Origin: an uncultured Pseudomonadota bacterium
GTDB taxonomy: Bacteria > Babelota > Babeliae > Babelales > Vermiphilaceae
DNA: 64,000 nt
Assembly (NCBI GenBank): GCA_964392765.1
Contig: CAYMRF010000001.1
Span: 3,744-67,743, forward strand
Direction: 5' to 3'
Below, piece by piece: positions 2,763-29,568 of this stretch (position 1 is the first letter of the stretch; the number at the start of each line of letters is the position of its first letter). The notes under the pieces were generated by a model that ran no database searches, had not been told where the DNA came from, and saw only the letters and a program-made list of their open reading frames with translations. The translations under genes were made by a program, and so were the position numbers.

Positions 2763-3603
2763 ATTTTCAGAATTAATTCTCACGCACGATTTACAACCAA
2801 CGCGGGGACTTAAACAAGTGCTCGCGTTTTTTTCTATCAATCCCCATCAACCCATTGAAAGTATCATCCGAATCACGCAAGAAAAGTGGTTGCGTGGCCC
2901 CATTGAGCGATGGCAGATTGCACAAAAAACGCCCATTACTCCGCAAGTGCACCAATTATTTTCTGAAATTGGCATGATAAGTGCCTTATATCCCACTGCA
3001 AAACACTATGATTATATTCTTCTTTTAGGCAGTGATTATGAGGGAACTCGAGCGCGTATTAATTTTTTACGCATTCTTTTAGCAAATGGCATTCAAACTA
3101 AACAGATTGTGGCAATCGGCAGCGATCGCCCGCTAGATATCAATGAATTGCGATCAAATTCATCCATCGGCACCACTGAAATAGAGATGATTAAAAAATT
3201 ATTGGAAAGCGATGAGTCCTTCGCCCGTTCGGGTCGATGGAGCGCGAAGCGCGAATGGAGACCTCTCCACTCGGCTCCTTCGGATCCTCTATCGAGGCGA
3301 ACGGAACGGGGAAATGTCACTTTCATCGAAGCAAAAGGCAAAACTCTTGCAGATGGAACTTTTAAACGAGCTACCACGGCAGATACTTTTAATGCCTGGC
3401 TTGCAAGCGCTCCAAAACCAGGATCGTGTTTGCTTATTTCCGATCAACCATTTATTGGGTATCAAAATGCGGTTGCTCACTCGTTACTCAAAAATTTCTG
3501 GAATATTACCACAGTCGGCCCCGCTATTGACAATCAAACTACTCTGGAAGATCTTTTAGATACTTTGGCCCGTTGGCTATATCAGGAGACCAATCAAAAA
3601 TAA
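2749..3603 (+). CDS. hypothetical protein, paralog B of the tandem pair, carrying an in-frame GC-rich repeat insertion
   Basis: 284 aa, collinear with paralog A. It has an extra segment SFARSGRWSAKREWRPLHSAPSDPLSRRTERGN, encoded by repeat module A at about 3217..3311. Confidence 0.6.
   Translation: MKSNKFSELILTHDLQPTRGLKQVLAFFSINPHQPIESIIRITQEKWLRGPIERWQIAQKTPITPQVHQLFSEIGMISALYPTAKHYDYILLLGSDYEGTRARINFLRILLANGIQTKQIVAIGSDRPLDINELRSNSSIGTTEIEMIKKLLESDESFARSGRWSAKREWRPLHSAPSDPLSRRTERGNVTFIEAKGKTLADGTFKRATTADTFNAWLASAPKPGSCLLISDQPFIGYQNAVAHSLLKNFWNITTVGPAIDNQTTLEDLLDTLARWLYQETNQK
3217..3311. repeat. GC-rich palindromic repeat, module A, in frame inside a CDS
   Basis: CCGTTCGGGTCGATGGAG-CGCGAAGCGCG-AATGGAGACCTCTCCACTC-GGCTCCTTCGGATCC-TCTATCGAGGCGAACGG. 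The outer arms are mutually complementary and the centre is palindromic. Other copies at about 9533, 11473, 17453 and 20176. Confidence 0.85.
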
Positions 3604-3614
3604 GTGAGTTTGGT

Positions 3615-4478
3615 ATGCAAGCAAAAACTTCGATGCATCTTTTTTTGTTTCTGATTGTTTCTTCAAATTCTTTGAGCGCAATGAGCGAAGCTCGTCAATT
3701 GGCAGAAATTCATGAGTCATCTCACCAGGCATATATTGAAAAATTTATAGATTCGTTAAAAACAGAAAAAGATTTTCAAAAATCGATTTATATTAATGGT
3801 GATTTTCCAGCTCTTCTTGAATTTGCTGCTTATGATAACATCGAAAATGTAAAAAGAATTTTAGCTAAAAGGCCGCCATTAGATAAAATTACCAATTCTG
3901 ATGGAGAAAATATTTTTCATATTTTAGCAAAAAATGGAAATTCAAAATTGATGCGCTGGGTTATTAAACATTGCGTACATGAAAATATAGATATCAGCTC
4001 AGCAATTAATGGTATTGAAAAAAATGATCTAAGAACTCCATTACACGTCGCTGCACGCAATTCCAGAACTGGGTGCTTAAAACTCTTGTTGCACTATGGA
4101 GCCAAAGTAGACTCTCTGAATAATGCAAACAATACCCCTCTTCATTTAGCAGCAGCATCGAGTTTCCGGGGACGGCATAAAAGAGATCACACGGTGGATA
4201 TTCTATGCAGAGCAAACGCAGCTCTCGCAATAAAAAATAAAGAAGATAGAACTCCTCAGGCATGCGCTGAAAAAGAAAAATACAGAACAACAACTGCAAT
4301 TTTACGATATTATTCTTTATGTTCTCAGCTTAAGCCAATTGTACAGGATAAAAAAGAGCCTAATTATCTTCAACGATTACCGCTCGAGCTTTTGCTCATG
4401 GCATGCAGATTTTGCGCAACTACAGAATCTATCGCGCCAAAGCCACCTTCAGAAAATCTACCCGCCTCTTCTCTTTGA
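3615..4478 (+). CDS. secreted ankyrin-repeat protein
   Basis: Start moved to ATG 3615 (MQAKTSMHLFLFLIVSSNSLSA signal peptide), just after the upstream stop at 3603. ANK repeats are visible, e.g. TPLHVAARNSRTGCLKLLLHYGAKVDSLNNANNTPLHLAA. Confidence 0.8.
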   Translation: MQAKTSMHLFLFLIVSSNSLSAMSEARQLAEIHESSHQAYIEKFIDSLKTEKDFQKSIYINGDFPALLEFAAYDNIENVKRILAKRPPLDKITNSDGENIFHILAKNGNSKLMRWVIKHCVHENIDISSAINGIEKNDLRTPLHVAARNSRTGCLKLLLHYGAKVDSLNNANNTPLHLAAASSFRGRHKRDHTVDILCRANAALAIKNKEDRTPQACAEKEKYRTTTAILRYYSLCSQLKPIVQDKKEPNYLQRLPLELLLMACRFCATTESIAPKPPSENLPASSL

Positions 4479-4909
4479 TTCATCAGTATAACCACTGGAA
4501 AAGTAGTAAGCTCAAGTACCTCTGAAATACAAGGAAATTGGTCAACATCAAGCAGTAAAATTTTAATGCGATCATTATACTTTTGCGCCAGTTCTTGCAA
4601 TAAATCTCGCTGCTTAACTTCTTTTTCATAAAAATAAATAAGAACTGGAATCGTGCAACGGAGTACTTCTGATTCAAAAGCAATTTCAGCAGGACTAAAA
4701 TTATTAAGGAGAAAATCGATCTCTTCTTGCTTTGGTTCTTCAAAAATTTTATAAACCGTTTTAGTTTCAATTAAGCTTCGAATAATTTTTACTGAATCGG
4801 CAAAATTACAGAGCGAATCTTCTGACTCACTTTGTTTTGATTGATTACAGGAAGGCAAAAGACAGATCAGCACTATGATTAGTAATCTAGACATATTTAC
4901 ATTTCTCAT
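4370..4909 (-). CDS. thioredoxin-fold-like lipoprotein lacking a CxxC motif
   Basis: Lipobox LLPSC after a hydrophobic N-terminus. Trx-like beta-alpha-beta layout (VLIYFYEKE...KILLLDVDQFP...FPVVILM), with no redox cysteine pair where WCGPC normally sits. Confidence 0.5.
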   Translation of the reverse strand: MRNVNMSRLLIIVLICLLPSCNQSKQSESEDSLCNFADSVKIIRSLIETKTVYKIFEEPKQEEIDFLLNNFSPAEIAFESEVLRCTIPVLIYFYEKEVKQRDLLQELAQKYNDRIKILLLDVDQFPCISEVLELTTFPVVILMNQREEAGRFSEGGFGAIDSVVAQNLHAMSKSSSGNR

Positions 4910-4958
4910 TGTTTTTTGTATTTCTTACAACTAATAATTTACTAAAAGAGGACTAAAA

Positions 4959-5420
4959 ATGAAAAAAATATCTTTGCTTTCACTTCTTTTGCTTTCAACT
5001 GCTTCAATTCAAGCAATGCAAGAAGTAAAAGAGTCAATTTCTGAAGAATTCGATTGTTTCGACTGCTTTGATAAAATAACTGTTGAAACAGATTGCATAT
5101 TGGCAGATTTGGGTCCATGCGCATTACAAACTGTTAAAGCGCGCCACATTCCCAGCATGCGAGTTTACGTTGTTAAAAGCGAAACCAGCGTTTTAGGAGA
5201 TTTTTTTGATAGTTATTCATTTAAAGAAACCAAGGACGAAAAGTCAATAAAAAGACCGGTAGACAATAAAACGGCTGAAAGAATCCGCGGTTTAATAGCG
5301 CAAGCCTATCAAGCTAAATCTACTGAAAGGAAAGCCGCGCTTGATGAATTGCATCAGGTGGTCAAAGAAGAAAATGCACAAGCAAAAGCATGGGCATTCG
5401 CAGCAGGAATGTGCAATTAA
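4959..5420 (+). CDS. small secreted protein, tandem family member 1
   Basis: Signal peptide MKKISLLSLLLLSTASIQA. Shares ARHIP..R.YV and KKAALDELHQVVK...AKAWAF.AG.CN with the ORF at 5863. Confidence 0.7.
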   Translation: MKKISLLSLLLLSTASIQAMQEVKESISEEFDCFDCFDKITVETDCILADLGPCALQTVKARHIPSMRVYVVKSETSVLGDFFDSYSFKETKDEKSIKRPVDNKTAERIRGLIAQAYQAKSTERKAALDELHQVVKEENAQAKAWAFAAGMCN

Positions 5421-5459
5421 GATTATTCACTCAATTTTAATATTTTATAGGGATCAAAA

Positions 5460-5852
5460 TTGAAAAAGGTATCTTTTTTATTCGCACTTCTTCTTATCTC
5501 AACATCATCAATACAATCGATGCAAGCAAGCAATGTAAGTGACTATTTTGATTCAATAAGCGAGAAAGAAGAATGCGCTTGCGATCTTAGAGCCCTGCGA
5601 ATAAGGCATATTCCTACAAAACGAATTTTTGTGGCATATATTTCTGTTAATGAACCAGATAGTTCAGCAGGCTATGCTTATCCAGAAGATAATTTATATC
5701 TTGGATTTAATTTAGATAACAAAACCTCCAAAACCATTTTTGAATCAATAAAAATGGTTAATGCAGAAAAAGATGCTTCCAAAAAAAAAGCTATTCTTGC
5801 TGAATTGCATAAAACAGTACTGGAATTCGATGCACGGGCTAAAAATAATTAA
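5460..5852 (+). CDS. small secreted protein, tandem family member 2 (diverged, TTG start)
   Basis: Signal peptide (M)KKVSFLFALLLISTSSIQS. Motifs LRIRHIPTKRIFVA and KKKAILAELHKTV are shared with both neighbours. Confidence 0.6.
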   Translation: MKKVSFLFALLLISTSSIQSMQASNVSDYFDSISEKEECACDLRALRIRHIPTKRIFVAYISVNEPDSSAGYAYPEDNLYLGFNLDNKTSKTIFESIKMVNAEKDASKKKAILAELHKTVLEFDARAKNN

Positions 5853-5862
5853 AAGGTTACTT

Positions 5863-6312
5863 ATGAAAACAATATCTTTACTTTCATTACTTCTCATCTC
5901 AGTTTCACTCCATGCAATGGAAGAAACAGAAGATAAAATTTCTCCCGAATTTAACTATTTTGATACATTACAAGTTCAAAGTGATGGCCAATATGATAGT
6001 ATGGGTGGATGGACAGCACAAGCTGTGCAAGCGCGGCATCTGCCAACCAGACGTATTTATGTTGCATTATTTGAAGAGTCTTTGTTGGGATCATCTAGAA
6101 AAGGTTATTCATACCAAGAAAGTCTTGGGGAAAAATCACCAAAGACTCTTTTAAATTATGAAACAACTGAAAAAATTCATACTCTAATACTTCAAGCACA
6201 TCAAGCAGAGCCCATTAAAAAGAAAGCAGCGCTTGACGCATTACATCAAGTAGTAAAACAAGCAGATTCAGAAGCAAAAGCATGGGCATTTGTAGCTGGA
6301 ATATGCAATTAA
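5863..6312 (+). CDS. small secreted protein, tandem family member 3
   Basis: The internal ATG at 5863 gives MKTISLLSLLLISVSLHA. The upstream extension of the track ORF (5761) overlaps member 2 and is probably not translated. The C-terminus is nearly identical to member 1. Confidence 0.7.
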   Translation: MKTISLLSLLLISVSLHAMEETEDKISPEFNYFDTLQVQSDGQYDSMGGWTAQAVQARHLPTRRIYVALFEESLLGSSRKGYSYQESLGEKSPKTLLNYETTEKIHTLILQAHQAEPIKKKAALDALHQVVKQADSEAKAWAFVAGICN

Positions 6313-6356
6313 AATTACTTAATTAATCTTTTATAAGAAATTATTTTGGCTTATTA

Positions 6357-7022
6357 TCAATGAGGCCGTGCCCAGCCATCCATTAATTCATCCAATGCGC
6401 TCCATGCGAATGGAGAATCCGCTTGAACCTTTTCTTCCCTCATTGTCTTGCCAAGGCTCCGAATTGTTTCACTTTTTTGCCAATTCTGTAGCCATTCTTT
6501 TCGCTTTACATCTCTAGGAAGAAATTCTTTAATAGCCGCCATGAGCCTTTCATATTCCAGCTGATCAATCTCAGCAGCTTCCTCGGAAATATTCACTGAG
6601 GGGTTTGGAACAAAATCCTGAAGTTTCATCAGCGCCTCAAGTTTGAAGTCGCGATATTCACTTCTCACCGCAGAGAATTCCAGTTCAGCTACTAACGATT
6701 TGTATTCTCGATACTTGACCGAATAGCGGGTTGCTCGTTGAATATTCATTGATTTTCTAAGAACTAATGAAGCCTCAACATCTGTTTTTAGCTTTTCTTG
6801 CTCTTTTTGAAGCTCTTCTTGTTGTTTGCAATATTCCTGAGATAAACCATTAAGCTCTTTTTTCAAGGCAATATATTTTTGTAAGGCCTGCCTCTCTTGT
6901 TCACTGGTAAATTTGGGCAAATAGGTAATTGCCCAGGTTTCAGCAGTAGAATTATTAACTCGATGGTCTTGGCATGCCATAATCGGAAGAGTTAAAAAAA
7001 TCATGCAAAAGAATTTATACAT
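6357..7022 (-). CDS. hypothetical lipoprotein, coiled-coil rich
   Basis: N-terminal hydrophobic segment with lipobox-like PIMAC. Charged heptad-like sequence (QEELQKEQEKLK). Confidence 0.5.
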   Translation of the reverse strand: MYKFFCMIFLTLPIMACQDHRVNNSTAETWAITYLPKFTSEQERQALQKYIALKKELNGLSQEYCKQQEELQKEQEKLKTDVEASLVLRKSMNIQRATRYSVKYREYKSLVAELEFSAVRSEYRDFKLEALMKLQDFVPNPSVNISEEAAEIDQLEYERLMAAIKEFLPRDVKRKEWLQNWQKSETIRSLGKTMREEKVQADSPFAWSALDELMDGWARPH

Positions 7023-7024
7023 AA

Positions 7025-8209: not shown

Positions 8210-8214
8210 AAATT

Positions 8215-8670
8215 CTATATATTTACTTTATTTTTTTGCTCTTCGATAACATCTTGCAATCGCTTGCGCTCAAATTCATCGTTTTTCCCCATAGAAAAAT
8301 TCGCAAATCGATCCGCCTGAATTCGCAGTAAATCTTCAGAGTCTAATCTATCAGGGCAAGTATTCAATTTATACTTCGAGTTTGCAAGTAAATTTTTTTG
8401 TGTTGTAGAGGGCCCGTTCTTAATGAACTTTTCCATTTTTTCCATGACAACTTTCATCGCACTGGAAGAAAAAGCGTATTCTTTCGTATCATCTGCGCAA
8501 TCGGGGAAAATAAATAATTCCTGTGGCTGATCAACCCAGCCCTTATCCAGTATCAATGCTTCAAAAAATGATGCCGTTGAACGCGCTCTAATAACATTTA
8601 GAGGAACGTTTTTCATTGCAAAACAAGAAAAAGTAATCAACAAAGAAATAGCAATACAGAGTTGTTTCAT
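8215..8670 (-). CDS. hypothetical secreted protein
   Basis: Signal peptide MKQLCIAISLLITFSCFA. No recognisable domain. Confidence 0.5.
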   Translation of the reverse strand: MKQLCIAISLLITFSCFAMKNVPLNVIRARSTASFFEALILDKGWVDQPQELFIFPDCADDTKEYAFSSSAMKVVMEKMEKFIKNGPSTTQKNLLANSKYKLNTCPDRLDSEDLLRIQADRFANFSMGKNDEFERKRLQDVIEEQKNKVNI

Positions 8671-8685
8671 AAAAAAACCTAATAA

Positions 8686-9366: not shown

Positions 9367-9372
9367 GAAAAA

Positions 9373-9421
9373 CCTCTCGATTCCGTTCATGGTGAGTGGC
9401 GCCCCCTGGCGCTGTATCGAA
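9373..9421. repeat. GC-rich repeat, module B-like
   Basis: CCGTTCATGGTGAGTGGC...GTATCGAACC resembles GGCCGTTCGTGGTGAG...TCGAA..CATAC at 29285 and the reverse complement of 14833..14863. Confidence 0.6.
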
Positions 9422-9532
9422 CCAAAATCAGTGTAAGCGAAATGCTCTTTGGGGTCAAATTAAGGGCTTTTTTTGACCGTATGCGCTAATCAGGCTAGAA
9501 TAGAACCTATTATTAGAACAGATTTTATAACA

Positions 9533-9624
9533 ACCTCTCCATTCGGCTCCTTCGGAGCCTCCATCGAGGCGAACGGGGGGAGGGGTTCGTTCGTTTCGAG
9601 CGAGCGTATGCGAGTCGAGAAATT
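9533..9624. repeat. GC-rich repeat: half module A followed by module D
   Basis: CTCTCCATTCGGCTCCTTCGGAGCCTCCATCGAGGCGAACGG, then CGTTCGTTTCGAGCG...AGTCGAGAAAT. The second part is the reverse complement of ATTTCTCGACT...GCTCGAAACGAACGG found in mnmE. Confidence 0.8.
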
Positions 9625-9672
9625 TTCACAAAAGAGAACCTCGAAAAATTAACCTATCGAGAATTAAAATTC

Positions 9673-12219
9673 ATGGATAAGCAATATAATCATCAAGTTG
9701 CTGAGCAAGAAGCGCAGCAAAAATGGCATAGAGAAAAAACCTACAGCATGGCCAATAATCCTGGCCCGATCTTTAGTATCGACACACCACCTCCTACCGT
9801 TTCAGGAAACTTGCATATCGGGCATATTTTTTCTTATACCCAAACCGATATCATTGCTCGCTATGCGCGCATGAGCGGCAGCAGCGTTTTCTATCCCTTT
9901 GGCTTTGATGATAATGGCTTGCCCACTGAACGCTATGTAGAAAAGAAACTCGATATTCGCGCACACGCAATGTCTCGCTCAGAATTTATTAATGTATGCC
10001 TTAAAGAAACGCATGCGGTTGAAGAACAGTTCCAGCAACTCTGGCAGCGCATGGGCCTCTCTGTAGACTGGGCTCATTGCTATTCAACTATCTCTGAATC
10101 TACTCGAAAAATTTCTCAAGAATCATTCGTTCGCTTGCTGCAAAAAGGATTCGTATATCGCAAAAATGAACCGGCGCTCTTTTGCACCACCTGCCGCACC
10201 TCCGTTGCTCAAGCAGAATTGGATGACATGGAAAAATCATCATTCTTTAATGATGTGATCTTTAAAGATGAAAAGGGCAACGATCTTTTAATTGGCACCA
10301 CGCGCCCTGAATTACTGCCTTCGGTAAACGGACTGCTCTTTATTCCCAATGATCCACGTTATCAACTCCTTGCAGGCACCTTTGCAACGGTACCTCTCTT
10401 TAATCAAAAAGTACCCGTTTTGGCCGATGATAAAGTGCTCATTGATAAAGGAACCGGTTTGGCAATGACCAGTACCTTTGGGGATACTACTGATATTGAA
10501 TGGTTTAAGAAACACAAATTAGAATATCGTCCCATGATTGGCCTTGATGGCAAAATGCTGCCCGCTGCCGGAATTTTAGCAGGGCTTAATGTGCAAGCTG
10601 CCCGCACTAAAGTTATTGAGGAACTCAAAACTGCGGGACTTTTAGTAAATCAAAAGCCAATTACCCACACCGTGAACGTGCATGAACGCTGCAAAAAAGA
10701 GATTGAATATGTGATGATCCCGCAGTGGTTCTTGAATCTTATTGATCATAAAAAAGAGTTTTTGGCACTGGCCGATCGCATTAATTGGTATCCTGGACAT
10801 ATGAAATCCCGCTACATCAATTGGGTGGAAAATATTGGATGGGATTGGTGCCTTTCGCGTCAACGCTTTTATGGCATTCCATTTCCGGTATGGCATTGCA
10901 GCAAATGCAATGAGATCATCCCCGCAGAAATTAAACAACTTCCGGTAGATCCACAAGAAACCAAATATACCGGCAATTGCCCAAAATGCGGTAGCTCCGA
11001 AATCACTCCTGATACTGATGTGATGGACACCTGGAATACGTCATCACTAACTCCGTATTTGTGCTACGCGCTTTTTAATCCGCAAGCGGAATCCGTTTTC
11101 ACTGATAAAAAAGTTGCTGAATTTATTCCGATGAGCATGAGACCTCAAGCGCATGATATCATTCGCACCTGGGCATTTTACACCATCGTAAAAGCATGGA
11201 TGCATGATCATGATCTGCCATGGCATAATATCGTGATCTCAGGCCACGTGCTTGCTGACACTAAAGAAAAGTTATCAAAATCAAAAGACAATGCGCCCAA
11301 TTCTCCGCAAGGATTGCTTGAGCGTTATCCTGCCGATGTGATCCGCTACTGGACATCTTCAGGCGGATTAGGCCAAGATATTGCTTTCTCCGAAGGACAA
11401 TTAAAAATTGGCCAACGCTTGGTAACCAAAATTTGGAACGCATTTAGATTTATTCATGAACACGTTTCCACTCCGTTCGCCTCGATAGAGCGCGAAGCGC
11501 GAGTGGAGAGGTCTCCATTCGGTCCTGCGGACCTCCATCGACCCGAACGGGGAGATGGGCAACCAACAACTCCATTGGGCATCACTAATGAATGGCTCTT
11601 GGATTCTGCAACGCAAACCTTTGCGCGCTATCAAACCTATTTTAATGAAAATGAGTTTGGTCTTGCGCTGGATGTAGTAGAAAAATTCTTCTGGAACAAT
11701 TTCTGCGATAACTATTTAGAATTGATTAAAGATCAACTCTTTAAGCCTGAAAATTATACTGAAGTTGAACTTCGCGCAACGCGATGGACTCTTTACCAAA
11801 CCGGATTGCGCATTTTGCAAATGTATGCGCCCTATTTACCGCACGTTACCGAAAAGTTGTATGAATTGATCTATGCGAAGCACGTTGGTACACCAAGTAT
11901 ACACCAAACTCGCTACAGCGATATTCAACAAGGCTATACCTTTGCAGAAAGTACCAAAGTGATGGATGTTATTATTGCGCTAATTACCCAAGTGCGTCGA
12001 CTCAAAACAGAAAAACAACTTTCATTAAAAGTGCCTCTTGAAAAGCTCACGATCACGGCTGTTGATGAGCATCTATTGCACAAAGTTGAAGCTCACACGC
12101 AATTAATTCGCGGCATCACCCATGCCCAAGAATTGCACTTTAATCCGGTAAAAGAAAAAACTGATTCGCATATTGAGCAATCAGGCGAGCAATGGCTTGC
12201 AACGGTGCACTGTGATTAG
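9673..12219 (+). CDS. valS: valine--tRNA ligase (TPPPTVSG-type N-terminus), carrying an in-frame repeat insertion
   Basis: 848 aa. DTPPPTVSGNLHIGH (HIGH), KLSKSK (KMSKS), a CP1 editing region and an anticodon-binding C-terminus. Module A is inserted at about 11467..11556. Confidence 0.88.
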   Translation: MDKQYNHQVAEQEAQQKWHREKTYSMANNPGPIFSIDTPPPTVSGNLHIGHIFSYTQTDIIARYARMSGSSVFYPFGFDDNGLPTERYVEKKLDIRAHAMSRSEFINVCLKETHAVEEQFQQLWQRMGLSVDWAHCYSTISESTRKISQESFVRLLQKGFVYRKNEPALFCTTCRTSVAQAELDDMEKSSFFNDVIFKDEKGNDLLIGTTRPELLPSVNGLLFIPNDPRYQLLAGTFATVPLFNQKVPVLADDKVLIDKGTGLAMTSTFGDTTDIEWFKKHKLEYRPMIGLDGKMLPAAGILAGLNVQAARTKVIEELKTAGLLVNQKPITHTVNVHERCKKEIEYVMIPQWFLNLIDHKKEFLALADRINWYPGHMKSRYINWVENIGWDWCLSRQRFYGIPFPVWHCSKCNEIIPAEIKQLPVDPQETKYTGNCPKCGSSEITPDTDVMDTWNTSSLTPYLCYALFNPQAESVFTDKKVAEFIPMSMRPQAHDIIRTWAFYTIVKAWMHDHDLPWHNIVISGHVLADTKEKLSKSKDNAPNSPQGLLERYPADVIRYWTSSGGLGQDIAFSEGQLKIGQRLVTKIWNAFRFIHEHVSTPFASIEREARVERSPFGPADLHRPERGDGQPTTPLGITNEWLLDSATQTFARYQTYFNENEFGLALDVVEKFFWNNFCDNYLELIKDQLFKPENYTEVELRATRWTLYQTGLRILQMYAPYLPHVTEKLYELIYAKHVGTPSIHQTRYSDIQQGYTFAESTKVMDVIIALITQVRRLKTEKQLSLKVPLEKLTITAVDEHLLHKVEAHTQLIRGITHAQELHFNPVKEKTDSHIEQSGEQWLATVHCD
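11467..11556. repeat. GC-rich palindromic repeat, module A, in frame inside valS
   Basis: CCGTTCGCCTCGATAGAG-CGCGAAGCGCG-AGTGGAGAGGTCTCCATTC-GGTCCTGCGGACC-TCCATCGACCCGAACGG. The core 11473..11550 is 78 bp, i.e. 26 codons. It is translated as PFASIEREARVERSPFGPADLHRPER. Confidence 0.85.
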
Positions 12220-14821: not shown

Positions 14822-14967
14822 CTGAGCCGCGCGTATGGTTCGACAGGCTCACCACGAGCGGCCTTACAACAGTCTTTCCGCTCGCCCTGACCCTTCGACT
14901 TCGCTCAGGAGTAAACGGCCGCCTGGCCGCCGAAGCCTTGGCGAAGGCTGGCTCGAAGGAAGCGAGC
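14822..14967. repeat. composite GC-rich repeat block (modules B, C, E1)
   Basis: GTATGGTTCGACAGGCTCACCACGAGCGGCC (B), CCTTCGACTTCGCTCAGGA (C) and CCGCCGAAGCCTTGGCGAAGGCTGG (E1). E1 differs by 1 of 25 nt from 17558..17582. Confidence 0.8.
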
Positions 14968-15121: not shown

Positions 15122-15197
15122 GCGGGAATAGCTCAATTGGTAGAGCGTTGCCTTGCCAAGGCAAAGGTTACGGGTTCGAGTCCCGTTTCCCGCTCCA
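15122..15197 (+). tRNA. tRNA-Gly (anticodon GCC), CCA encoded
   Basis: Manual cloverleaf: acceptor GCGGGAA/TTCCCGC, D arm GCTC..GAGC, anticodon stem TTGCC/GGCAA with loop TTGCCAA, T arm ACGGG-TTCGAGT-CCCGT, discriminator T, then CCA. Confidence 0.93.
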
Positions 15198-15345
15198 GTC
15201 TTCGCCCACAAGGGGCTACGTCTGGCTGCGCCGCTGATAAGGCAGAAACAAAAACGGTTCTAGCAACATGCGAAGACTGTCCGCCGTAGCTTGCCGAGTC
15301 TGAAGACCCGGATAAGCATAGGCTGGACTAGCGGCCCACCATCTC
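15198..15345. repeat. GC-rich structured segment 3' of tRNA-Gly containing repeat module E2
   Basis: Inverted repeat AGTCTTCGC...GCGAAGACT. Then CCGCCGTAGCTTGCCGAGTCTGAAGACCCGGATAAGCATAGGC (15281..15323), which matches the reverse complement of 29385..29427 at 40 of 43 nt. Confidence 0.75.
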
Positions 15346-16343: not shown

Positions 16344-17960
16344 ATGTTTCATTCAGTTGATGAACAAACTATTATTGCACAATGTACGCCTCGCGGAAGC
16401 GGGGCGATCGCTTTACTGCGCATCTCAGGCATCAACGCAATAGAAATAGTAAATTCTATTGCAAAATTAGCTTCACAAAAATCATTACTCGATGCAGATA
16501 CGCATACGATTCACTATGGCAGCGTGGTAGACTCTCAAGGTGTCACCGTTGATAACGTGATGTTTTTACTCATGAAAGCGCCAAAAACATTCACGGGCCA
16601 AGAGACGGTAGAGATCACGTGCCACAACAATCAATTCATTGTTGAACAGATTATTGCGCTGGCCATTGCCAATGGCGCACGCTTGGCCCAAGAAGGGGAA
16701 TTTACTAAGCGTGCCGTGCTCAATGGCAAAATAGATTTAGTGCAAGCTGAGGCGATAAATGAACTCATTCATGCGCAAACACAACTGGCGCTCAAACAAT
16801 CACTCTCTCAATTAAAAGGTTCTCTCACTCAATGGCTTGCCACCATTGAACATGCACTCATTAAAGCACTCGCACTTTCTGAAGCCAGCTTTGAATTTCT
16901 TGATGAAGAGATGGAATTTGCACCACAAATTAGTAGCATGATTACAGAAATTAAAACTACCATTGGCAGCATTAAAAAAACTTATAATCAACAACAGCAA
17001 ATTCGCCAAGGGGTTCGCGTTGCCATTATTGGCTCCGTAAACGCGGGCAAATCTTCTTTATTTAATGCGCTACTCAATCAAGAGCGCGCTATCGTTACCG
17101 CTATTGCCGGCACCACTCGCGATGCGATTGAAGCAGGCGTGTATAAAAATGGCAACTTCTGGACTTTGGTAGACACTGCCGGATTGCGCCAGACTGATGA
17201 TGTTATTGAGCAGGAAGGGATTAGAAGATCTTTTGAAGAAGCACAGAAGGCGGACATTATTATTTTGGCTTTCGATTCTTCGCGTGAAATCACGTGTGAG
17301 GAATCGGAAGTTTATCAACAGATTGCACAGCAGTATCCGAATAAAATTATTACGGTTTATACGAAATGTGATACTACATTTCTCGACTCTTCCTCACTAA
17401 GTTCGGATTCGCTCGAAACGAACGGGGAAGAATTTGAGAAAATAAAAGACCCCGTTCGGGTCGATGGAGGTCTGGAAGACCGAATGGAGACCTCTCCACT
17501 CACCCCTAAAGGGGTTGTATCGAGGCGAACGGAAGAGCGGGCACACATCCTGCCTGTCCGCCGTAGCCTTGGCGAAGGCTGGAAGAGCAACCAAGGGTTG
17601 CGTATCGAAGGACGTGCCAACATTGCAGATAATTTTACTAAGCACGAGCCAATCAACCTCTCCAGCAAAACAAAAACCAACATCAGCGCTCTCGAATCCG
17701 CAATTGAACAAAAAATTGCCACCCTATTTGCCGGCATCGAATCTCCATTCTTATTAAACCAACGCCAATTCAATCTCTTGCTCGCGCTTGAAAAAAAGCT
17801 TGATGAGATTCACAATATGCTCAGTCAAAAACAAGTTGCCTATGAACTATTATCAATCCATCTTAATGATGCTATTGCACATTTAGCTGAACTTTCAGGA
17901 AAATCAATCAGTGAGGCTGGTATGGATATGGTGTTTAGGGAATTTTGTATTGGGAAGTAA
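16344..17960 (+). CDS. mnmE: tRNA modification GTPase MnmE, carrying a composite in-frame repeat insertion of about 78 aa
   Basis: G1 GSVNAGKSSLFNAL, G3 DTAGLR, G4 TKCD, C-terminal FCIGK. 538 aa against the usual roughly 450-460 aa; the excess maps to 17378..17614. Confidence 0.9.
   Translation: MFHSVDEQTIIAQCTPRGSGAIALLRISGINAIEIVNSIAKLASQKSLLDADTHTIHYGSVVDSQGVTVDNVMFLLMKAPKTFTGQETVEITCHNNQFIVEQIIALAIANGARLAQEGEFTKRAVLNGKIDLVQAEAINELIHAQTQLALKQSLSQLKGSLTQWLATIEHALIKALALSEASFEFLDEEMEFAPQISSMITEIKTTIGSIKKTYNQQQQIRQGVRVAIIGSVNAGKSSLFNALLNQERAIVTAIAGTTRDAIEAGVYKNGNFWTLVDTAGLRQTDDVIEQEGIRRSFEEAQKADIIILAFDSSREITCEESEVYQQIAQQYPNKIITVYTKCDTTFLDSSSLSSDSLETNGEEFEKIKDPVRVDGGLEDRMETSPLTPKGVVSRRTEERAHILPVRRSLGEGWKSNQGLRIEGRANIADNFTKHEPINLSSKTKTNISALESAIEQKIATLFAGIESPFLLNQRQFNLLLALEKKLDEIHNMLSQKQVAYELLSIHLNDAIAHLAELSGKSISEAGMDMVFREFCIGK
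17378..17614. repeat. three concatenated GC-rich repeat modules (D + A + E1) in frame inside mnmE
   Basis: D: ATTTCTCGACT...GCTCGAAACGAACGG (17378..17425). A: CCGTTCGGGTCGATGGAG...TGGAGACCTCTCCA...TATCGAGGCGAACGG (17453..17532). E1: CCGCCGTAGCCTTGGCGAAGGCTGG (17558..17582) plus a tail ending about 17614. Confidence 0.85.
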
Positions 17961-20110: not shown

Positions 20111-20175
20111 CTTCTATAATTTTTATTCAGAACAAACGCACTTTAAAGTCTTTTAAATACGCAAAAAAATTCTAT

Positions 20176-20366
20176 CCGTTCGCCTCGATGGAACCCTGTA
20201 AAGGGTGAATGGAGAGGTTTTTTATATGAAATCAACAACGTTTTAAGGACTTCTCCATTCGGGCTTCGCACTCTGGTTCGATGCGGCGTGGCCTTACTCA
20301 CCACAGGCCTTCGACGCGGCTCCCGACCATCCTGAGCGAATGCAATGAGTCGAAGGAAGCGAACGG
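20176..20366. repeat. composite GC-rich repeat block: module A split by AT-rich filler, then B/C-like modules
   Basis: CCGTTCGCCTCGATGGAACCCTGTAAAGGGTGAATGGAGAGG, then 32 nt of AT-rich sequence, then TCTCCATTCGGG...GGTTCGATGCGG...CTCACCACAGG...TCCTGAGCGAATGCAATGAGTCGAAGGAAGCGAACGG. Confidence 0.8.
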
Positions 20367-20864: not shown

Positions 20865-20868
20865 TCTT

Positions 20869-21564: not shown

Positions 21565-21681
21565 GAAAAACCTTTTTACAAGCCTGTTATTTTGACTGGC
21601 TAGCATATCAAACTCATAGTGATTGTATAGCTCGAAATTTTGGCAATAAAAAAGGCCCAGTTTCCCGGGCCTCAATTCTCT

Positions 21682-22008: not shown

Positions 22009-22031
22009 GATAAATCCCGCAATTATTCATT

Positions 22032-22313: not shown

Positions 22314-22382
22314 AAAAAATCCTCAAAAAAAAGAGAGTCCAATTACTTGGACTCTCTCAATGTATTTAAAATGCTTAAATAA

Positions 22383-23012: not shown

Positions 23013-23159
23013 GAGTACTCCCTAGTTGAAAGGAAAAAAGTGTTAGTTTTATTTAACGGCATAGGGACTTTATCACAATTTTAGCCGATTTTCTACTCAT
23101 TATCTGCAAAAATATGCTATAGTGATGAAGAAAAGAATTTCAAAAATGGCAAAAACAAC

Positions 23160-24674: not shown

Positions 24675-24675
24675 C

Positions 24676-26136
24676 ATGTCAAAAACGCCTTCAATCCTGG
24701 ATCATTATCCGGATTATGAACTGAATATTGGTATTGAAGTTCACGTTCAACTCACCACAAACAGCAAGATATTTTGCGGTTGCCCGAATCAAGTAACCAA
24801 GAATCCTAACACAAATATCTGCAATATTTGTACCGCACAACCGGGTGCATTGCCGGTATTAAATAAAAAAGTGGTGGAATATGCAATAAAAGCCGGCCTT
24901 GCAACCGGATGCTCTATCGCACAAGAATGTGCGTTTGCGCGTAAGCATTATTTTTATCCTGACTTACCAAAAGATTATCAGATCAGCCAAAATGAAGATC
25001 CTATTTGCAGCAACGGATTTATTCCGATTCGCTTAGAAGATGGATCAATTAAAAAGATTCGCTTGATCCGTATTCATATGGAAGAAGATGCGGGTAAAAA
25101 TATTCACGCTGAGCATGAAAATGCAAGCTTTGTGGATCTTAACCGCACCGGTACTCCGCTCTTAGAAATCGTTACCCATCCGGATATTTCAAGTACCTAT
25201 GAAGCCAAAGCATATTTGCGCGCCCTGCGCTTAATTGTGCAATATTTGGGCATCTGCTCTGGCAACATGGAAGAAGGAGCTTTCCGCGCAGATACCAACG
25301 TTTCGGTTCGCAAAAAAGGCGCAGAAAAATTGGGAACTCGTGCCGAGCTTAAAAATATTAATTCATTCAAGTTTATTGGCGATGCGGTTGAGCATGAAAT
25401 TGAACGCCAAATTCAATTGCTAGAAAGCGGCCAAAAAGTCCGCCAAGAAACTCGCCTTTGGGATACTAAAAATAAAAAAACTATCATGATGCGCTCAAAA
25501 GAAGAAGCCGCAGACTATCGCTACTTCCAAGATCCTGATCTGCCAATTCTAGAAGTAAGCGAAAGCATGATTGCTGATGTGAAAAAAACCATGCCAGAAC
25601 TTCCGTATGATCGCTTTGAAAGATATATGAATCAAAACGGATTATCTGCATATGAAGCAGAAATCTTAGTTGATGATATCGAGCTTTCTAACTATTACGA
25701 ACAAGCTCATAAGCTTAACCCCAGCAAACAGATTGTTAATTTAATCTTGCGAGATGTTATGGGGTATCTCAAAGAATCTAAAATCCCTCTTAATGAATTA
25801 AAAATGACCCCAGACAAACTGGCAAGCCTTGTTACCCTACTCGAGAAGGGCGTGATTAATAATCGTGCAGCTCAAGAAGTTTTTGCCGCTGTTTGCCAAA
25901 CCGGCCAATCGCCAGAGCAAATTGTGAAAGAAAAAGGCCTAGAACAAATCGGTTCTGTTGAAGAAATTGAAGCGATTGTTAAAGAATTGCTTGCTGCCAA
26001 TGCACTGCAAGTTGCTGATTATAAAGCCGGAAATGCGAAATTGTTTGGCTTCTTTGTAGGCCAGATGATGCAGAAGACAAAAGGCAAAGGCGATCCAAAA
26101 GTAATTCAAGAATTGTTGAAGAAGCACTTGAGTTGA
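24676..26136 (+). CDS. gatB: Asp/Glu-tRNA amidotransferase subunit B
   Basis: 486 aa. GIEVHVQL, HYFYPDLPK.YQISQ and a C-terminal GatB/YqeY domain. Confidence 0.93.
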   Translation: MSKTPSILDHYPDYELNIGIEVHVQLTTNSKIFCGCPNQVTKNPNTNICNICTAQPGALPVLNKKVVEYAIKAGLATGCSIAQECAFARKHYFYPDLPKDYQISQNEDPICSNGFIPIRLEDGSIKKIRLIRIHMEEDAGKNIHAEHENASFVDLNRTGTPLLEIVTHPDISSTYEAKAYLRALRLIVQYLGICSGNMEEGAFRADTNVSVRKKGAEKLGTRAELKNINSFKFIGDAVEHEIERQIQLLESGQKVRQETRLWDTKNKKTIMMRSKEEAADYRYFQDPDLPILEVSESMIADVKKTMPELPYDRFERYMNQNGLSAYEAEILVDDIELSNYYEQAHKLNPSKQIVNLILRDVMGYLKESKIPLNELKMTPDKLASLVTLLEKGVINNRAAQEVFAAVCQTGQSPEQIVKEKGLEQIGSVEEIEAIVKELLAANALQVADYKAGNAKLFGFFVGQMMQKTKGKGDPKVIQELLKKHLS

Positions 26137-26243
26137 TTTCTTAAGAATATATGCTCACAAAATAAACAAAACTTATTAAAGTTAGCGATAAATATAAAGT
26201 TATTGTCGACCAAGAATTTTTGGATAGTAATAGTTTTGTTATT

Positions 26244-26657
26244 TCACTGAATCGCACAAGTCTGCGGCCGCAACGAATCAATTAACGCTTCAGCTTCTTC
26301 TATATCGCGTATTGCATTGCGATAATGGATATTATTGGTGTCTGAAATTTTCGAATCTTCATAAGTTTTTAATTCATTCAGCGCATTATGCAAGAGAGCT
26401 GCCATCCTATCTCTCACGTTGTCGGCTGCATTTAAGTAAGGAAGCGTATTAATAATGATCCAAACATCATCTCTACCTTTATTCACAGAGCGATTATAAT
26501 AGGGATTAGGACCCTCTTCATAATTTCTTAAAACTAAGCATGCTCTTTTTGCGGCCAACTTTGCTCTTTGAAGATAAAGAGCTGTAGCATTACCCAAAAG
26601 CGAACCCGAAATAAGCATTACTACCAAGCCCAATATTGATAATTTTTTATTTAACAT
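26244..26657 (-). CDS. small secreted protein, paralog pair member
   Basis: MLNKKLSILGLVVMLISGSLLG. The N-terminus and helical layout are shared with the adjacent ORF. Confidence 0.55.
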   Translation of the reverse strand: MLNKKLSILGLVVMLISGSLLGNATALYLQRAKLAAKRACLVLRNYEEGPNPYYNRSVNKGRDDVWIIINTLPYLNAADNVRDRMAALLHNALNELKTYEDSKISDTNNIHYRNAIRDIEEAEALIDSLRPQTCAIQ

Positions 26658-27054
26658 TGCTCTCTCCAGAATAAGAATTAAGCAACTCTAACGCATGATT
26701 TACCGCCTTTTCTGCAGCCAAATGAGCCTGATTTTTTCTTACACCGTCATTGGTTTGCGTTATAAAACTCTTAAATGCTGCCAAAGCGCTATTTACATCA
26801 TTATAAATTTGTTGTTTTACATTCAAATCATCGATCTCAAGAGCAGGAATCAATCTCGCTGCTTCTCTCACGTAATCTTCTGCTTTCTCCAAATCATCAA
26901 AATACCCTCTATAGGATGGACTTTCTCTTAATAATGAGGAGGCGTTTTTTAATGAATAATTTGCCCCTTGGAGTGCCGGGCGGCCTTTTGCCAAAATAGA
27001 ACCAGATACAAGCATTATGGCCAAATAAAGAATAGACAGTTTTTTATTACACAT
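26647..27054 (-). CDS. small secreted protein, paralog pair member
   Basis: Start moved to MCNKKLSILYLAIMLVSGSILA (27054). 11-nt overlap with the downstream paralog. Confidence 0.55.
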   Translation of the reverse strand: MCNKKLSILYLAIMLVSGSILAKGRPALQGANYSLKNASSLLRESPSYRGYFDDLEKAEDYVREAARLIPALEIDDLNVKQQIYNDVNSALAAFKSFITQTNDGVRKNQAHLAAEKAVNHALELLNSYSGESNVK

Positions 27055-27269
27055 TACTCTCTCCACCGATGGGTTAAATAGAGGCTTTTAGCCACTCAAA
27101 AGGCCTTTTCTATTACCATTTTAGCAAAGCAGGCATGCCCAACTCAACATTTATCTTTTCTATTTGAAATCTTGCCGAGAGTTATGGGAATATCTGCAAT
27201 TTTTACCAAATATCGCGGAAATAGCCCTTTTTGGGCAATTTTGGCCTTGACAAACTTTTCTACCTGTAT

Positions 27270-27296
27270 TAGGGTTGTATGGAATACTATTAGGGC
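27270..27296 (+). promoter_or_regulatory. TAGGGT-N15-TAGGGC element in the helicase 5' region (the first hexamer could act as a -10 for TTGACA at 27247)
   Basis: TTGACA (27247-27252), 17 nt, TAGGGT (27270-27275), then TAGGGC at 27291-27296. The same two hexamers with the same 21-bp offset occur at 53731..53757. Confidence 0.3.
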
Positions 27297-27400
27297 AAGT
27301 GATAGCGGTGCCCTAGCGCTTAACAGCATCAGTATCGTGGATATTCGCTATCACAGCAGCTTTTTCAAGCTAAAAACCCTAATAATATAAGAGATTTTTT

Positions 27401-29176
27401 ATGACTAATTCCTTTAAGGAACTACCTTTACATCCTCAAATTTTAACCACTCTTGATGGTCTTGGGTTCACTACCCCGACTGAAATTCAAGGGAAAGCTA
27501 TCCCTATGCTTTTGGGCTCAAACAGAGTCGATTTCTGGGGACAAGCGCAAACCGGTACGGGTAAAACCCTTGCTTTTGGTATTCCTTTAATTCAGGGTAT
27601 CAATCCGCAAGATAAACGCCTTCAAGCGCTTATCGTTGCTCCAACCAGAGAGCTCGTGGTTCAGATTATGCAAAGCTTACGCCCTATTGCGCAACCAATG
27701 GGAATCACCGTTGATGCAATCTACGGCGGCGCTTCTATGAGAGATCAGATTAACTCCCTCAAAAAAGGTCTTCACATTGTAGTGGGAACCCCTGGGCGTA
27801 TTAATGATCACTTGAATCGCAAAACCCTTTCTCTTGCAAACTTAAAGACTTTAGTGCTTGATGAAGCAGATATCATGCTTGATATGGGCTTTAAAGAAGA
27901 GATGGATGAGATTTTAGCGGCATCTCCTGATGAACGCCAAATTTGGCTTTTCTCTGCAACTATTAAGCCTGGTATTAATCAGATTATGCGCGAGCATATG
28001 AAAGATACGGTGAGTGTTACTGCAAGCAAGCAACAAATTGGCGCTTCAAACACCAAGCAATACTTCTCTATGGTTCCTCACAGAAACCGATTTGAGGCAT
28101 TGTGCCGATTTATTGATAGCAATCCATCATTTTATGGATTTATCTTCTGCCAAACAAAAATTTTAACTGCTGAATTAGCAGAAAAATTAGCGGCAGCAGG
28201 CTATCCCGCAAATGCACTTCATGGCGATATGAGCCAAGGATTGCGTAATGCAGTAATTAAGAAATTTAAAAATAAAGATTTTAACATCTTAGTAGCAACC
28301 GATGTTGCGGCACGTGGAATTGACGTTTCTGATCTTACCCACGTGATTAACTATTCAATTCCTAACGATCATGAAAGCTATGTTCACCGTATTGGTAGAA
28401 CCGGCCGCGCAGGAAAAGAAGGTATTGCAATCAGTTTTATTGGTGGCAAAAATGAAGTGCGTCATATCAGAATGCTTGAGCGCAAATTCAAATTCACCAT
28501 TAACCCACTTGATGTGCCAACCGCTCAAGATATTAAGAAAGTATACATGCAAAAAGCATGCGACTATCTTGAAACTCTTGCGCAAAAGACCAGCACCGTG
28601 GCTCCTGAAGTCGAAGCAGCAGTTCGTTGCTTTGATGCAGCAGAATTGACCAATATCGTAATTGCAACGGTTGCAGAAAAGTTCTTCCCTGCAACAAGAA
28701 AAGATGATTTCAACTTCGCAAACACCAGCACCCAATCATTTGATAAAAATGATGACAGCCAAGTTACTGATGATGGATTACAAGAATTAATGATTCACCT
28801 TGGTACTGATGATGATATTACCCGTGAAGATGTGGCAGATTTCCTTTCCAAAGAAGGCGGAATCGATACTGACAGCTTAGAAAAACTCAAAGTAATCAAA
28901 CGCCGCACCTTTATTAAGCTTCCTTCTGAAATGGCTGAAGCGTTATTGCAGAAGCTTAAAGGTAAGAGCATTAACGGTCAAAAAACACGCATCACGCTTG
29001 CTCCTGTTTCTGATGACGATTGGGGCTCATCTGGCCCACGTCGCGGCGGCAGAAGAGGCGGCGATAGAGATCGCGGTGGCGATCGTGGCGGCCGTAGAGG
29101 CAGAGCTCGTGGCGATCGCGGTGACCGTGGCGATAGAGGCGGATCACGCGGTGGCGAACGTCGTAAACGCTACTAA
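27401..29176 (+). CDS. DEAD-box ATP-dependent RNA helicase (DeaD/CsdA-like) with an RGG/RGD-rich C-terminal tail
   Basis: Motifs Q (TPTEIQ), I (AQTGTGKT), Ia (PTRELV), II (DEAD), III (SAT) and VI (HRIGRTGRAG). DbpA-like RNA-binding region, and tail RGGRRGGDRDRGGDRGGRRGRARGDRGDRGDRGG. Confidence 0.92.
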   Translation: MTNSFKELPLHPQILTTLDGLGFTTPTEIQGKAIPMLLGSNRVDFWGQAQTGTGKTLAFGIPLIQGINPQDKRLQALIVAPTRELVVQIMQSLRPIAQPMGITVDAIYGGASMRDQINSLKKGLHIVVGTPGRINDHLNRKTLSLANLKTLVLDEADIMLDMGFKEEMDEILAASPDERQIWLFSATIKPGINQIMREHMKDTVSVTASKQQIGASNTKQYFSMVPHRNRFEALCRFIDSNPSFYGFIFCQTKILTAELAEKLAAAGYPANALHGDMSQGLRNAVIKKFKNKDFNILVATDVAARGIDVSDLTHVINYSIPNDHESYVHRIGRTGRAGKEGIAISFIGGKNEVRHIRMLERKFKFTINPLDVPTAQDIKKVYMQKACDYLETLAQKTSTVAPEVEAAVRCFDAAELTNIVIATVAEKFFPATRKDDFNFANTSTQSFDKNDDSQVTDDGLQELMIHLGTDDDITREDVADFLSKEGGIDTDSLEKLKVIKRRTFIKLPSEMAEALLQKLKGKSINGQKTRITLAPVSDDDWGSSGPRRGGRRGGDRDRGGDRGGRRGRARGDRGDRGDRGGSRGGERRKRY

Positions 29177-29198
29177 TCTATTTTAGATTTTGATTAAT

Positions 29199-29231
29199 GG
29201 GCTCAAGAGAACATCTTGAGCCCATTTTTTT
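29199..29231 (+). terminator. rho-independent terminator of the helicase gene
   Basis: GGGCTCAAGA-gaaca-TCTTGAGCCC followed by a T7 run. Confidence 0.8.
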
Positions 29232-29284
29232 AGTGCTAGCTTCTTCTAAAAACCTCAAGCTCTGGTCTAAGCATATTCTATTAA

Positions 29285-29568
29285 GGCCGTTCGTGGTGAG
29301 GGCCGAGCAAAGCGAGGCGTCTCGAATCCATACGGCCGATATATTTCATAGGATTCAAACTTTTTTATATGGTTCGATAACCCTGCCTACGCTTATCCGG
29401 GTCTTACGACTCGGCAAGCTACGGCGGGCACGGCGCTCGCTGGCTGGCGGATTTTATCCTGAGCCTGTCGAAGGGCACCACGAACGGGCTTTTAAACCTA
29501 TCTTGCTACTAGGCCAATTTTTAGTGATAATTAATATTCCGCTCGTTTCGAGCGCAGTCGAGAAATGC
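29285..29568. repeat. repeat hotspot: modules B, E2 (reverse), C/B hybrid and D (reverse), separated by short AT spacers
   Basis: GGCCGTTCGTGGTGAG...CATACGGCC (29285..29338). GCCTACGCTTATCCGGGTCTTACGACTCGGCAAGCTACGGCGG (29385..29427). TCCTGAGCCTGTCGAAGGGCACCACGAACGGGC (29456..29489). CCGCTCGTTTCGAGCGCAGTCGAGAAAT (29539..29566). Confidence 0.8.

Follow-up and report, generated by a model that had tools for sequence, protein, structure and literature searches.

Likely selfish palindromic repeats in intergenic DNA and essential genes of a Dependentiae bacterium

Rickettsia palindromic elements (RPEs) encode extra peptides that are compatible with the function of the proteins that receive them, and no transposase is known to be associated with these elements (PMC10969869). 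REPINs, the paired form of the repetitive extragenic palindromic (REP) sequences, have conserved arms around a spacer that is unique to each copy yet always forms a hairpin (PMC3337134), and they are mobilized as folded single strands by REP-associated tyrosine transposases, or RAYTs (PMC3337134, PMC3116915). Here we describe a family of GC-rich repeats that resembles both systems, found in a stretch of 64,000 nucleotides (the window) of contig CAYMRF010000001.1 from an uncultured bacterium. By protein name, the closest named relatives of its MnmE and ValS proteins belong to Candidatus Dependentiae/Babeliales. The GC content of the window is 39.7%, and the nine GC-rich islands reported in the original prediction were all present, with GC contents of 51-64%.

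Several other repeats offer partial parallels. Bacterial interspersed mosaic elements (BIMEs) are mosaic combinations of palindromic units, and REP and REPIN sequences are not known to produce a target duplication. The GC clusters of yeast mitochondria and the double-hairpin elements of fungal mitochondria are GC-rich palindromes in an AT-rich genome, are thought to be mobile, and are sometimes found in coding regions or nested; the likeness, taken from general descriptions, is limited by their organellar setting, unrelated sequences, and different replication context. Correia elements of Neisseria are bounded by defined terminal inverted repeats and duplicate a TA target, and the pneumococcal RUP has been linked to the transposase of an insertion sequence. 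Like the islands, the Correia/NEMIS miniature inverted-repeat transposable elements, or MITEs, are small, abundant, palindromic, and able to affect neighboring genes, and Correia elements carry promoter and integration host factor sites (PMC10969869). The pneumococcal BOX, RUP, and SPRITE repeats resemble the islands in being modular (boxA-B-C), in clustering, and in inserting into each other (PMC10969869). They differ in being mainly intergenic, in not forming GC-rich islands, and in not being known to have spread in frame through essential genes.

The islands are likely to be copies of selfish, non-autonomous palindromic DNA repeats that form one superfamily, each module being an imperfect palindrome, and they are best read as REPIN-like in design and RPE-like in their in-frame insertion into genes. 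With RPEs they share short palindromic repeats, an obligate intracellular host, a division into several families, and in-frame copies in unrelated genes that include essential ones (PMC10969869). As RPEs are described, the islands are set apart from them by their host (Dependentiae/Babeliales rather than Rickettsiales), by modules that are strongly GC-rich relative to the genome, and by a modular and nested build from units of 25-83 nt, compared to about 150 bp for RPEs. To our knowledge, an invariant four-way-junction scaffold with hypervariable hairpins, as predicted here, has not been described for RPEs. The likeness to REP and REPIN sequences lies in short imperfect palindromes with a conserved foot, in inverted doublets that give long hairpins with internal mismatches, and in persistence at orthologous sites; the doublet hairpin is represented by the scaffold and hairpins of the module termed A and by the doublets of modules B and C. 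By definition, REP and REPIN sequences are mostly extragenic; open reading frames (ORFs) of at least 187 aa, however, contain 14 of the 25 module A copies. Module A further differs in the lack of a GTAG-type 5' tetranucleotide, as judged by inspection of the sequence, and in its predicted junction of three hairpins instead of a simple doublet hairpin, and no RAYT was found in the Dependentiae DNA sampled, which comprises the window and loci from related genomes (up to approximately 310 kb).

RPEs and Correia- or MITE-like elements had been named as the closest analogies in the original prediction. The first is apt for the in-frame gene insertions, while the second is weaker, given that neither a consistent target-site duplication nor a transposase was found in the sampled DNA, and REP, REPIN, and BIME sequences are the closer structural analogues. 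New features are the phylum, a GC-rich build that is both nested and modular, and the predicted junction scaffold with hypervariable hairpins; the REP/REPIN-like design and the RPE-like colonization of genes are known. No description of these elements was found in the searchable literature, and the only repeats mentioned in the two main papers on Dependentiae genomes are ankyrin-type repeats of proteins.

Structure of module A and its companion modules

A single set of modules was found to underlie all of the islands, as had been proposed. The module A arm CCGTTCGSSTCGATRGA occurred 8 times in the window compared to 0.00 expected from 100 shuffles, and an independent repeat finder recovered the shared blocks D5, D6, D9, D11, D16, I1, I2, I4, and I14. 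Modules B, C, D, E1, and E2 were each repeated in the window, and every module was also present in other Dependentiae genomes. Module A itself is represented in the window by three full copies, one right half, and one copy split by nested modules.

Module A is 74-83 nt long, with invariant arms and center and two hypervariable hairpins, and in its oriented form has the layout CCGTTCGGGTCGATGGA-(hairpin 1)-GA(A/G)TGGAGACCTCTCCACTC-(hairpin 3)-TCTATCGAGGCGAACGG. Folding with either RNA or DNA parameters gave z-scores of -3.2 to -5.2, and the predicted structure comprises an outer stem of 7 bp, an internal GG/GG mismatch, an approximately 8-bp inner stem with a fixed G-T pair, and three hairpins, which as modeled amounts to a DNA four-way junction. 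In an alignment of 18 copies from three genomes, the scaffold was invariant, including the GG/GG and G-T mismatches, and hairpins 1 and 3 varied. Pairing was retained in 98.3% of the cells of this alignment; 9 of the 10 stem pairs in the variable hairpins had changes on both sides (44 cells), and no one-sided changes of the G-U type were seen. When the partners were slid by 1-3 columns as a control, pairing fell to 33-47%. It is puzzling that the mismatches of the scaffold never change, yet the stems of the hairpins are always perfect.

Among the 24 copies that could be parsed, the 5' and 3' hairpins each came in 17 different forms, which made up 22 combinations. Triloops of the GNA type were found in 18 of 23 5' hairpins and the complementary TNC in 17 of 23 3' hairpins, and d(GCGAAGC)-type DNA mini-hairpins were among them. 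GCGAAGC and C-GNA-G hairpins are classical DNA mini-hairpins of extraordinary stability (PMC13037366, PMC3201870). The perfect Watson-Crick palindromes, the two-fold symmetry of loop types, and the occurrence of both orientations relative to host genes together argue that pairing takes place in DNA rather than in RNA.

Two other views of the fold were rejected. Flip/flop inversion of the module A interior, in the style of parvovirus terminal repeats, was discarded because the orientation of the center relative to the GG arms is constant in the 18 aligned copies. A tRNA-like module A was likewise discarded: ARAGORN and Rfam gave a genuine tRNA-Gly alone, and inspection of the fold showed that the helices do not fit a cloverleaf. 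Rfam identified only this tRNA-Gly in the window at the gathering threshold, with no match to any module, and in permissive mode nothing besides the tRNA was better than E = 0.1, all such matches falling far below the gathering score. The proposal that the family as a whole is palindromic held for module A and the composites, which are strongly so, but not for isolated pieces of B, C, D, and E2, which folded no better than shuffles.

The composites are nested. At the mnmE site of the related locus L023, module D is followed by module A, with hairpin 1 deleted and hairpin 3 the same, and then by a reversed module D (D'); this D-A-D' composite of 190 nt folds as a single nested palindrome (z = -7.5). 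The mnmE gene of the window has the same D and A followed by E1 in place of D', and the island at 9533-9624 is the right half of a D-A-D' composite. MnmE of the relatives P0004 and P0010 has a D...D' shell without A, which suggests that A entered the center of an older palindrome. Other modules occupy the hairpin positions of module A in L015, in L022, and at 20176-20366 of the window, and some module A copies carry a further inverted-repeat shell, AGATCTCTTCNGAAA...TTTCAGAAGAGATCT.

Modules A and D end in a common foot of 7 bp, CCGTTCG/CGAACGG, and the close variants CGAGCGG and CCGCTCG are present in B and C. The cores of modules B and C (18-27 nt) also form multicopy intergenic inverted doublets in plasmids of the proteobacteria Comamonas and Moraxella, which supports at the DNA level the earlier suggestion that sequences encoding MVRQAHHER- and PEPVEG-type peptides occur in other genomes. 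The doublets were found at 17 places in Comamonas endophytica and 8 in C. antarctica, with a 27-nt stretch 96% identical to module B of the window, and a plasmid of Moraxella osloensis has both CCTGAGCCTGTCGAAGGG and ATGGTTCGACAGGCTCACCA within one 70-nt element. The CCGTTCG/CGAACGG foot is present in the Comamonas doublet, and close variants of this foot occur in the Moraxella repeat, so that the Dependentiae modules can be considered part of a wider REP-like repeat family.

Insertion sites and reading frames

The copy of module A in valS (9673-12219) is a full copy of 78 nt at 11473..11550 on the minus strand, in frame and located between the catalytic and anticodon-binding domains. It encodes 32 aa (TPFAS...GDG) where the orthologs have 5 aa (IVAPE in P0122), so that ValS is longer by a net 27 aa. 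The copy was missing from all 24 aligned orthologs, one of them 84% identical, and was also missing from the DNA of that relative (L024), which in addition had neither of the two islands upstream of valS. Other ValS orthologs had B-C-E1, E1, or E2 peptides at different positions.

In mnmE (16344-17960), a full copy of module A of 81 nt is found in frame at 17452..17532 on the plus strand, within the loop linking GTPase motifs G4 and G5, and an orthologous copy is present in L023. On the same strand, module D lies before it at 17378..17425 (peptide FLDSSSLSSDSLETNGE) and module E1 after it at 17558..17582 (peptide RRSLGEGW, repeat block D16). The window MnmE has 538 aa, compared to 453 aa in orthologs with an empty site. 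The G4-G5 loop is an insertion hot spot: 36 of 97 MnmE orthologs had at least 15 extra residues there, with different module peptides from several families, and P0028 had module A in reversed orientation. Yet another palindromic insert family, absent from the window, occupies this loop in P0009, P0015, P0037, P0041, and P0050 and gives the paired peptides SFDT...TQDVY and HILS..EVRVSKD; another insert family of the loop yields FVTSSGLLRMNMNT.

The third full copy, of 80 nt, lies at 3225..3304 on the plus strand, in frame within the ORF at 2749-3603 (peptide RSGRWSAKREWRPLHSAPSDPLSRRT). The neighboring paralog at 1914-2762 was tried as an internal empty site and not retained, being suggestive but not clean at 32% identity. 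In another relative, a 21-kb locus (L032) syntenic with the window (ybeY-ruvA-tRNA-jag-mnmE-...-rng-gatB) contained zero modules. A comparison of orthologous loci for empty sites, which the original prediction had proposed, yielded them for valS, upstream of valS, for mnmE, and across the 21-kb synteny, and as judged from these alignments the module copies are insertions.

The three in-gene copies of the window are indeed read in three different frames, giving RSGRWS, PFASIE, and VRVDGG as predicted. Across all host ORFs, module A is read in 5 of 6 frames, the sixth having a TAG, and in both orientations relative to host genes. The use of five frames argues that it is not a protein domain. In the related loci, the host sites include the N/Pyr linker of transketolase, the tail after MutS domain V, a loop of a metallo-β-lactamase (MBL)-fold protein, and the N-terminus of a LigD Prim-Pol protein, among others. 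Pfam gave no match over the in-gene inserts. Every in-ORF copy leaves the frame open, as the original prediction had stated for several frames, although this is in part a trivial effect of GC-richness; by our estimate, roughly one in two frames of 26 codons would be open by chance at such a composition. In an AlphaFold2 model of the window MnmE, residues 346-433, comprising the insert and its flanks, had a predicted local distance difference test (pLDDT) score of about 30 and no secondary structure, whereas the rest of the model was mostly of higher confidence (mean pLDDT 68.5). Searched in full with HMMER, the mnmE insert peptide gave one match, to an unrelated repeat protein, and a concatenated query of six-frame module peptides gave nothing at E <= 1; short, low-complexity peptides miss significance in databases of this size. 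Looking up the window MnmE as an exact protein likewise returned no record.

It is extremely improbable that the segments within genes represent conserved loops or ancient protein domains, or that the islands are artefacts of assembly or contamination. Orthologs lack the segments at the same positions, and five frames are used for the same DNA. A chimera might be suspected where an AT-rich metagenome-assembled genome (MAG) has GC-rich patches, with nothing specific to support this, but the same modules were found in independent NCBI, ENA, JGI, and Logan assemblies, including a complete 1.6-Mb chromosome, with the ORFs intact. The empty sites, the five frames, and the two orientations instead uphold the earlier view of a selfish or structural element acting at the DNA level.

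Strong enrichment of module A was seen near ORF starts: 8 of the 14 in-ORF copies fall among the first 33 codons, after the start codon and ahead of a signal-peptide-like hydrophobic core (loci L003, L006, L011, L012, L015, L016, L020, and L027, in both orientations), and no in-frame start is present between the element and the core. These eight copies with no alternative start, along with the strong predicted fold and its covariation, would be in keeping with action at the RNA level, either as a structured cis-regulatory RNA, as a small RNA, or as a self-excising element removed from the mRNA, in which case the host proteins and their signal peptides would lack the insert. We consider this very unlikely, as the copies occur in both orientations relative to host genes, the variable stems have no G-U pairs, the triloops are of the DNA-type GNA form with their complements on the other arm, neither the gathering threshold nor permissive mode gave an Rfam match, and the frame is open in every in-ORF copy.

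The orthologous D and A modules of mnmE are approximately 93-95% identical in DNA sequence between the window and L023, compared to 46% at the flanking third codon positions, and the spacer between the modules has diverged. On this comparison, the identity reflects DNA-level constraint, homogenization, or repeated site-specific insertion. Together with a scaffold whose GG/GG and G-T mismatches are invariant in all aligned copies from several genomes, it is what might be expected of DNA structural elements kept by host selection, such as sites for nucleoid, topoisomerase, or recombination proteins, or signals for replication or chromosome organization. Similar proposals have been made for some REP/BIME elements, and vertical persistence and co-option have been argued for REPINs (PMC3337134; bioRxiv 10.1101/2021.07.10.451892). 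Such a host benefit nonetheless appears unlikely. Relatives differ in the presence of copies at and upstream of valS and along the 21-kb synteny; those in coding sequences occur in five frames and both orientations; there is no consistent placement relative to promoters or terminators, and canonical terminators are independent of the modules; and only a handful of genomes contain module A. Terminator function in particular was rejected, as the modules have no T-tails and a canonical terminator precedes the island beginning at 29285.

Distribution and proposed movement

A census of module A was made with an exact two-part pattern in 185,579 species genomes, JGI metagenome contigs, and viral contigs. 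The pattern was found at 22 loci in 4 of the species genomes and in five JGI metagenome contigs, all with the same scaffold, and there were 0 matches in the viral contigs. The four species genomes are two MFD09495 MAGs, one Babeliales MAG, and one 2.7-kb contig binned as Parachlamydiaceae (L017; PLSG01000073.1). The last has module A at the N-terminus of the LigD primase-polymerase ORF and a second module-rich island upstream; it is either a mis-binned Dependentiae contig or the product of transfer between amoeba-associated bacteria.

Target-site duplication was not a feature of the family, as 21 of 22 module A copies had no significant flanking direct repeat. The exception was the single module A copy of Candidatus Babeliales AMX-MBFR-12 (L013, 6359-6500) with a flanking direct repeat of 20 nt (ATAATTCGTTTTTCTTTTTT). 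The lack of a consistent flanking direct repeat argues against a MITE of the DDE type. In such a scheme, the modules would be classical MITEs derived from a DDE-type insertion sequence, with the D...D' arms (ATTTCTCGACT) serving as terminal inverted repeats for cut-and-paste transposition as for Correia/NEMIS elements. The direct repeat of L013 fits this scheme, as does the placement of D and D' as a long inverted repeat around module A in L023 and, in part, in the window. We nevertheless regard it as improbable: inverted arms are present here and a fixed-length duplication is not, the D arms are missing from most module A copies, no transposase was found in the window or in the sampled loci, and hypervariable internal hairpins with fixed ends are unlike the typical decay of MITEs. 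Nor did the sampled DNA, which represents small parts of the genomes, contain a full-length insertion sequence sharing the terminal repeats.

For selfish repeats of REPIN-like design, the combination of conserved arms with unique hairpin-forming spacers, which REPINs share, favors a structure-dependent single-strand mechanism. We infer a single-stranded intermediate, a mobilizing enzyme, and translation of the in-gene copies. The modules would be recognized as folded single-stranded DNA or as a cruciform, and a trans-acting enzyme, encoded elsewhere or since lost and most likely an HUH/Y1 (RAYT-like) transposase, would then copy or move them without target duplication. New copies would often land in the tips or centers of older palindromes, giving nested composites such as D-A-D'. 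Copies in genes would survive only when in frame, stop-free, and located in linkers, surface loops, or N-terminal regions, and the survivors would be translated as disordered peptides; frame, freedom from stops, and tolerance by the protein would thus decide survival, as they do for RPEs (PMC10969869). Intrastrand template switching (quasi-palindrome correction), or else selection for mobility, probably maintains the complementarity of the stems.

Several observations weigh against this interpretation. As the original prediction had noted, the window contains no transposase, and a Pfam scan of its 58 ORFs revealed no transposase, recombinase, or HUH domain. Nor was there a homolog of an authentic IS200/IS605 TnpA in the approximately 310 kb sampled, and two further Y1 transposase queries gave no match in a smaller, earlier set of the same loci; these negatives are weak because the sampled DNA comprises small parts of the genomes. 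No protein family recurred beside the modules in the sampled loci. The invariance of the scaffold across genomes whose proteins differ by 25-35% could equally mean host function or gene conversion, and the same could hold for the conserved orthologous copy in mnmE. The differences in presence between relatives, from whose comparison insertion is read, could in principle be deletions. Finally, the 8 of 14 copies at N-termini with no downstream start are awkward for simple tolerated translation.

A more novel reading, which we view as unlikely, is that module A represents a new class of structure-defined mobile DNA, a four-way-junction element. The scaffold and its fixed mismatches would then be the recognition site of a structure-specific enzyme, and the two hairpin positions would be exchangeable cassettes or landing pads for other palindromes. 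The many N-terminal copies may further be removed or bypassed at the DNA or RNA level instead of being translated, in which case they would constitute a new kind of bacterial intervening sequence.

In-frame colonization of essential genes by palindromic repeats has hitherto been seen as a peculiarity of Rickettsia, and the Dependentiae modules would provide a second, independent, and richer case in another phylum of obligate intracellular bacteria, suggesting a general link between an intracellular lifestyle and tolerance of such DNA. The copies represent many natural insertion experiments that map permissive loops of conserved proteins, and they could account for much of the length variation and many of the spurious ORFs in Dependentiae annotations. 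An invariant scaffold bearing perfectly paired hypervariable hairpins, along with the CCGTTCG/CGAACGG foot, also bears on how REP-like sequences are recognized, maintained, and moved.

Other module copies and features of the window

Motif scans placed all module copies of the window between 3.2 and 29.6 kb, with none between 30 and 64 kb. Upstream of valS, a B-like module with a nested GC hairpin lies at 9373..9421 on the minus strand, in the 5' leader of a minus-strand gene ending at about 9366 and directly upstream of the Shine-Dalgarno sequence of that gene. The adjacent composite comprises the right half of module A at 9533..9576 on the plus strand, truncated at the central palindrome (repeat block D11), and D' at 9587..9623 on the minus strand as the outer arm. 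Both the B-like module and D' are missing from L024.

Further along, module B (GGTTCGACAGGCTCACCACGAGCGG) lies at 14837..14861 on the plus strand, with module C at 14876..14910 on the minus strand as its partner arm, bearing the CCGCTCG foot, and module E1 at 14927..14951 on the plus strand (block D16). The island at 15198-15345 was upheld in part: module E2 is present at 15278..15338 on the plus strand (block I1), but the left third, at approximately 15198-15233, is a conserved, probable trailer of a tRNA-Gly(GCC) gene (15122-15197) and is not counted as a mobile module. This stretch of about 35 nt directly 3' of the tRNA (GTCTTCGCCCACAAGGGGCTACGTCTGGC) is also found at 8741-8776 of L032, with no adjacent E2, and had no match in Rfam; it may be a conserved tRNA trailer or a processing hairpin.

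The module A copy at 20176..20366, on the minus strand and intergenic between convergent genes, has its central palindrome split by 31 AT-rich nt and B/C-like modules nested at its 3' hairpin position (block I4). The last island begins with a B-like module with an internal insertion at 29285..29335 on the minus strand, followed by module E2 at 29370..29430 on the minus strand, which is 84% complementary to 15278-15338 (block I1). A C/B fusion, CCTGAGCCTGTCGAAGGGCACCACGAACGG, lies at 29455..29487 on the plus strand (peptide PEPVEGHHER), with an 18-nt core identical to that of a Moraxella plasmid repeat, and a short form of D' at 29539..29566 on the minus strand marks the right end of the island. 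The ORF at 29197-29571 that spans this island has no Pfam match and is presumably spurious. The DEAD helicase has an RG-rich tail (28986-29178) and Jag an RQ-rich region; both were considered and excluded, being GC-rich but outside of the repeat family.

The 58 ORFs scanned with Pfam encode housekeeping and ankyrin proteins, and the genes named in this way are alr, tyrS, valS, ybeY, ruvA, jag, mnmE, rng, gatB, a DEAD helicase gene, a photolyase gene, nusA, and infB. A probable chromosomal replication origin lies at 52780-53880, in a non-coding gap of 1.1 kb upstream of nusA. Cumulative GC skew has its minimum and changes sign at about 54 kb of the window, and 8 of the window's 9 TTATCCAC(C/A) boxes lie in two inverted arrays inside the gap; these putative DnaA boxes, at 53366-53617, adjoin an AT-only stretch at 53630-53680. 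Neither dnaA nor dnaN is present in the 64-kb window. The module copies all lie on one side of the probable origin, 24-50 kb away from it, and the occurrence of nine islands within the first 30 kb and 0 in the other 34 kb, which holds the putative origin, has a rough chance estimate of about 0.001.

Diverged paralogs form tandem arrays at 1914-3603, 4959-6312, and 44430-47542. The first consists of two ORFs of about 283 aa that are 32% identical and have no Pfam match. One tandem-array trio of small ORFs has the common start MKK(I/T)SLL, and a tandem-array trio has weak, sub-threshold matches to ankyrin. Two large genes for M16-family (insulinase-like) peptidases, at 41544-44357 and 47574-50201 on the minus strand, lie on either side of the ankyrin-gene array.

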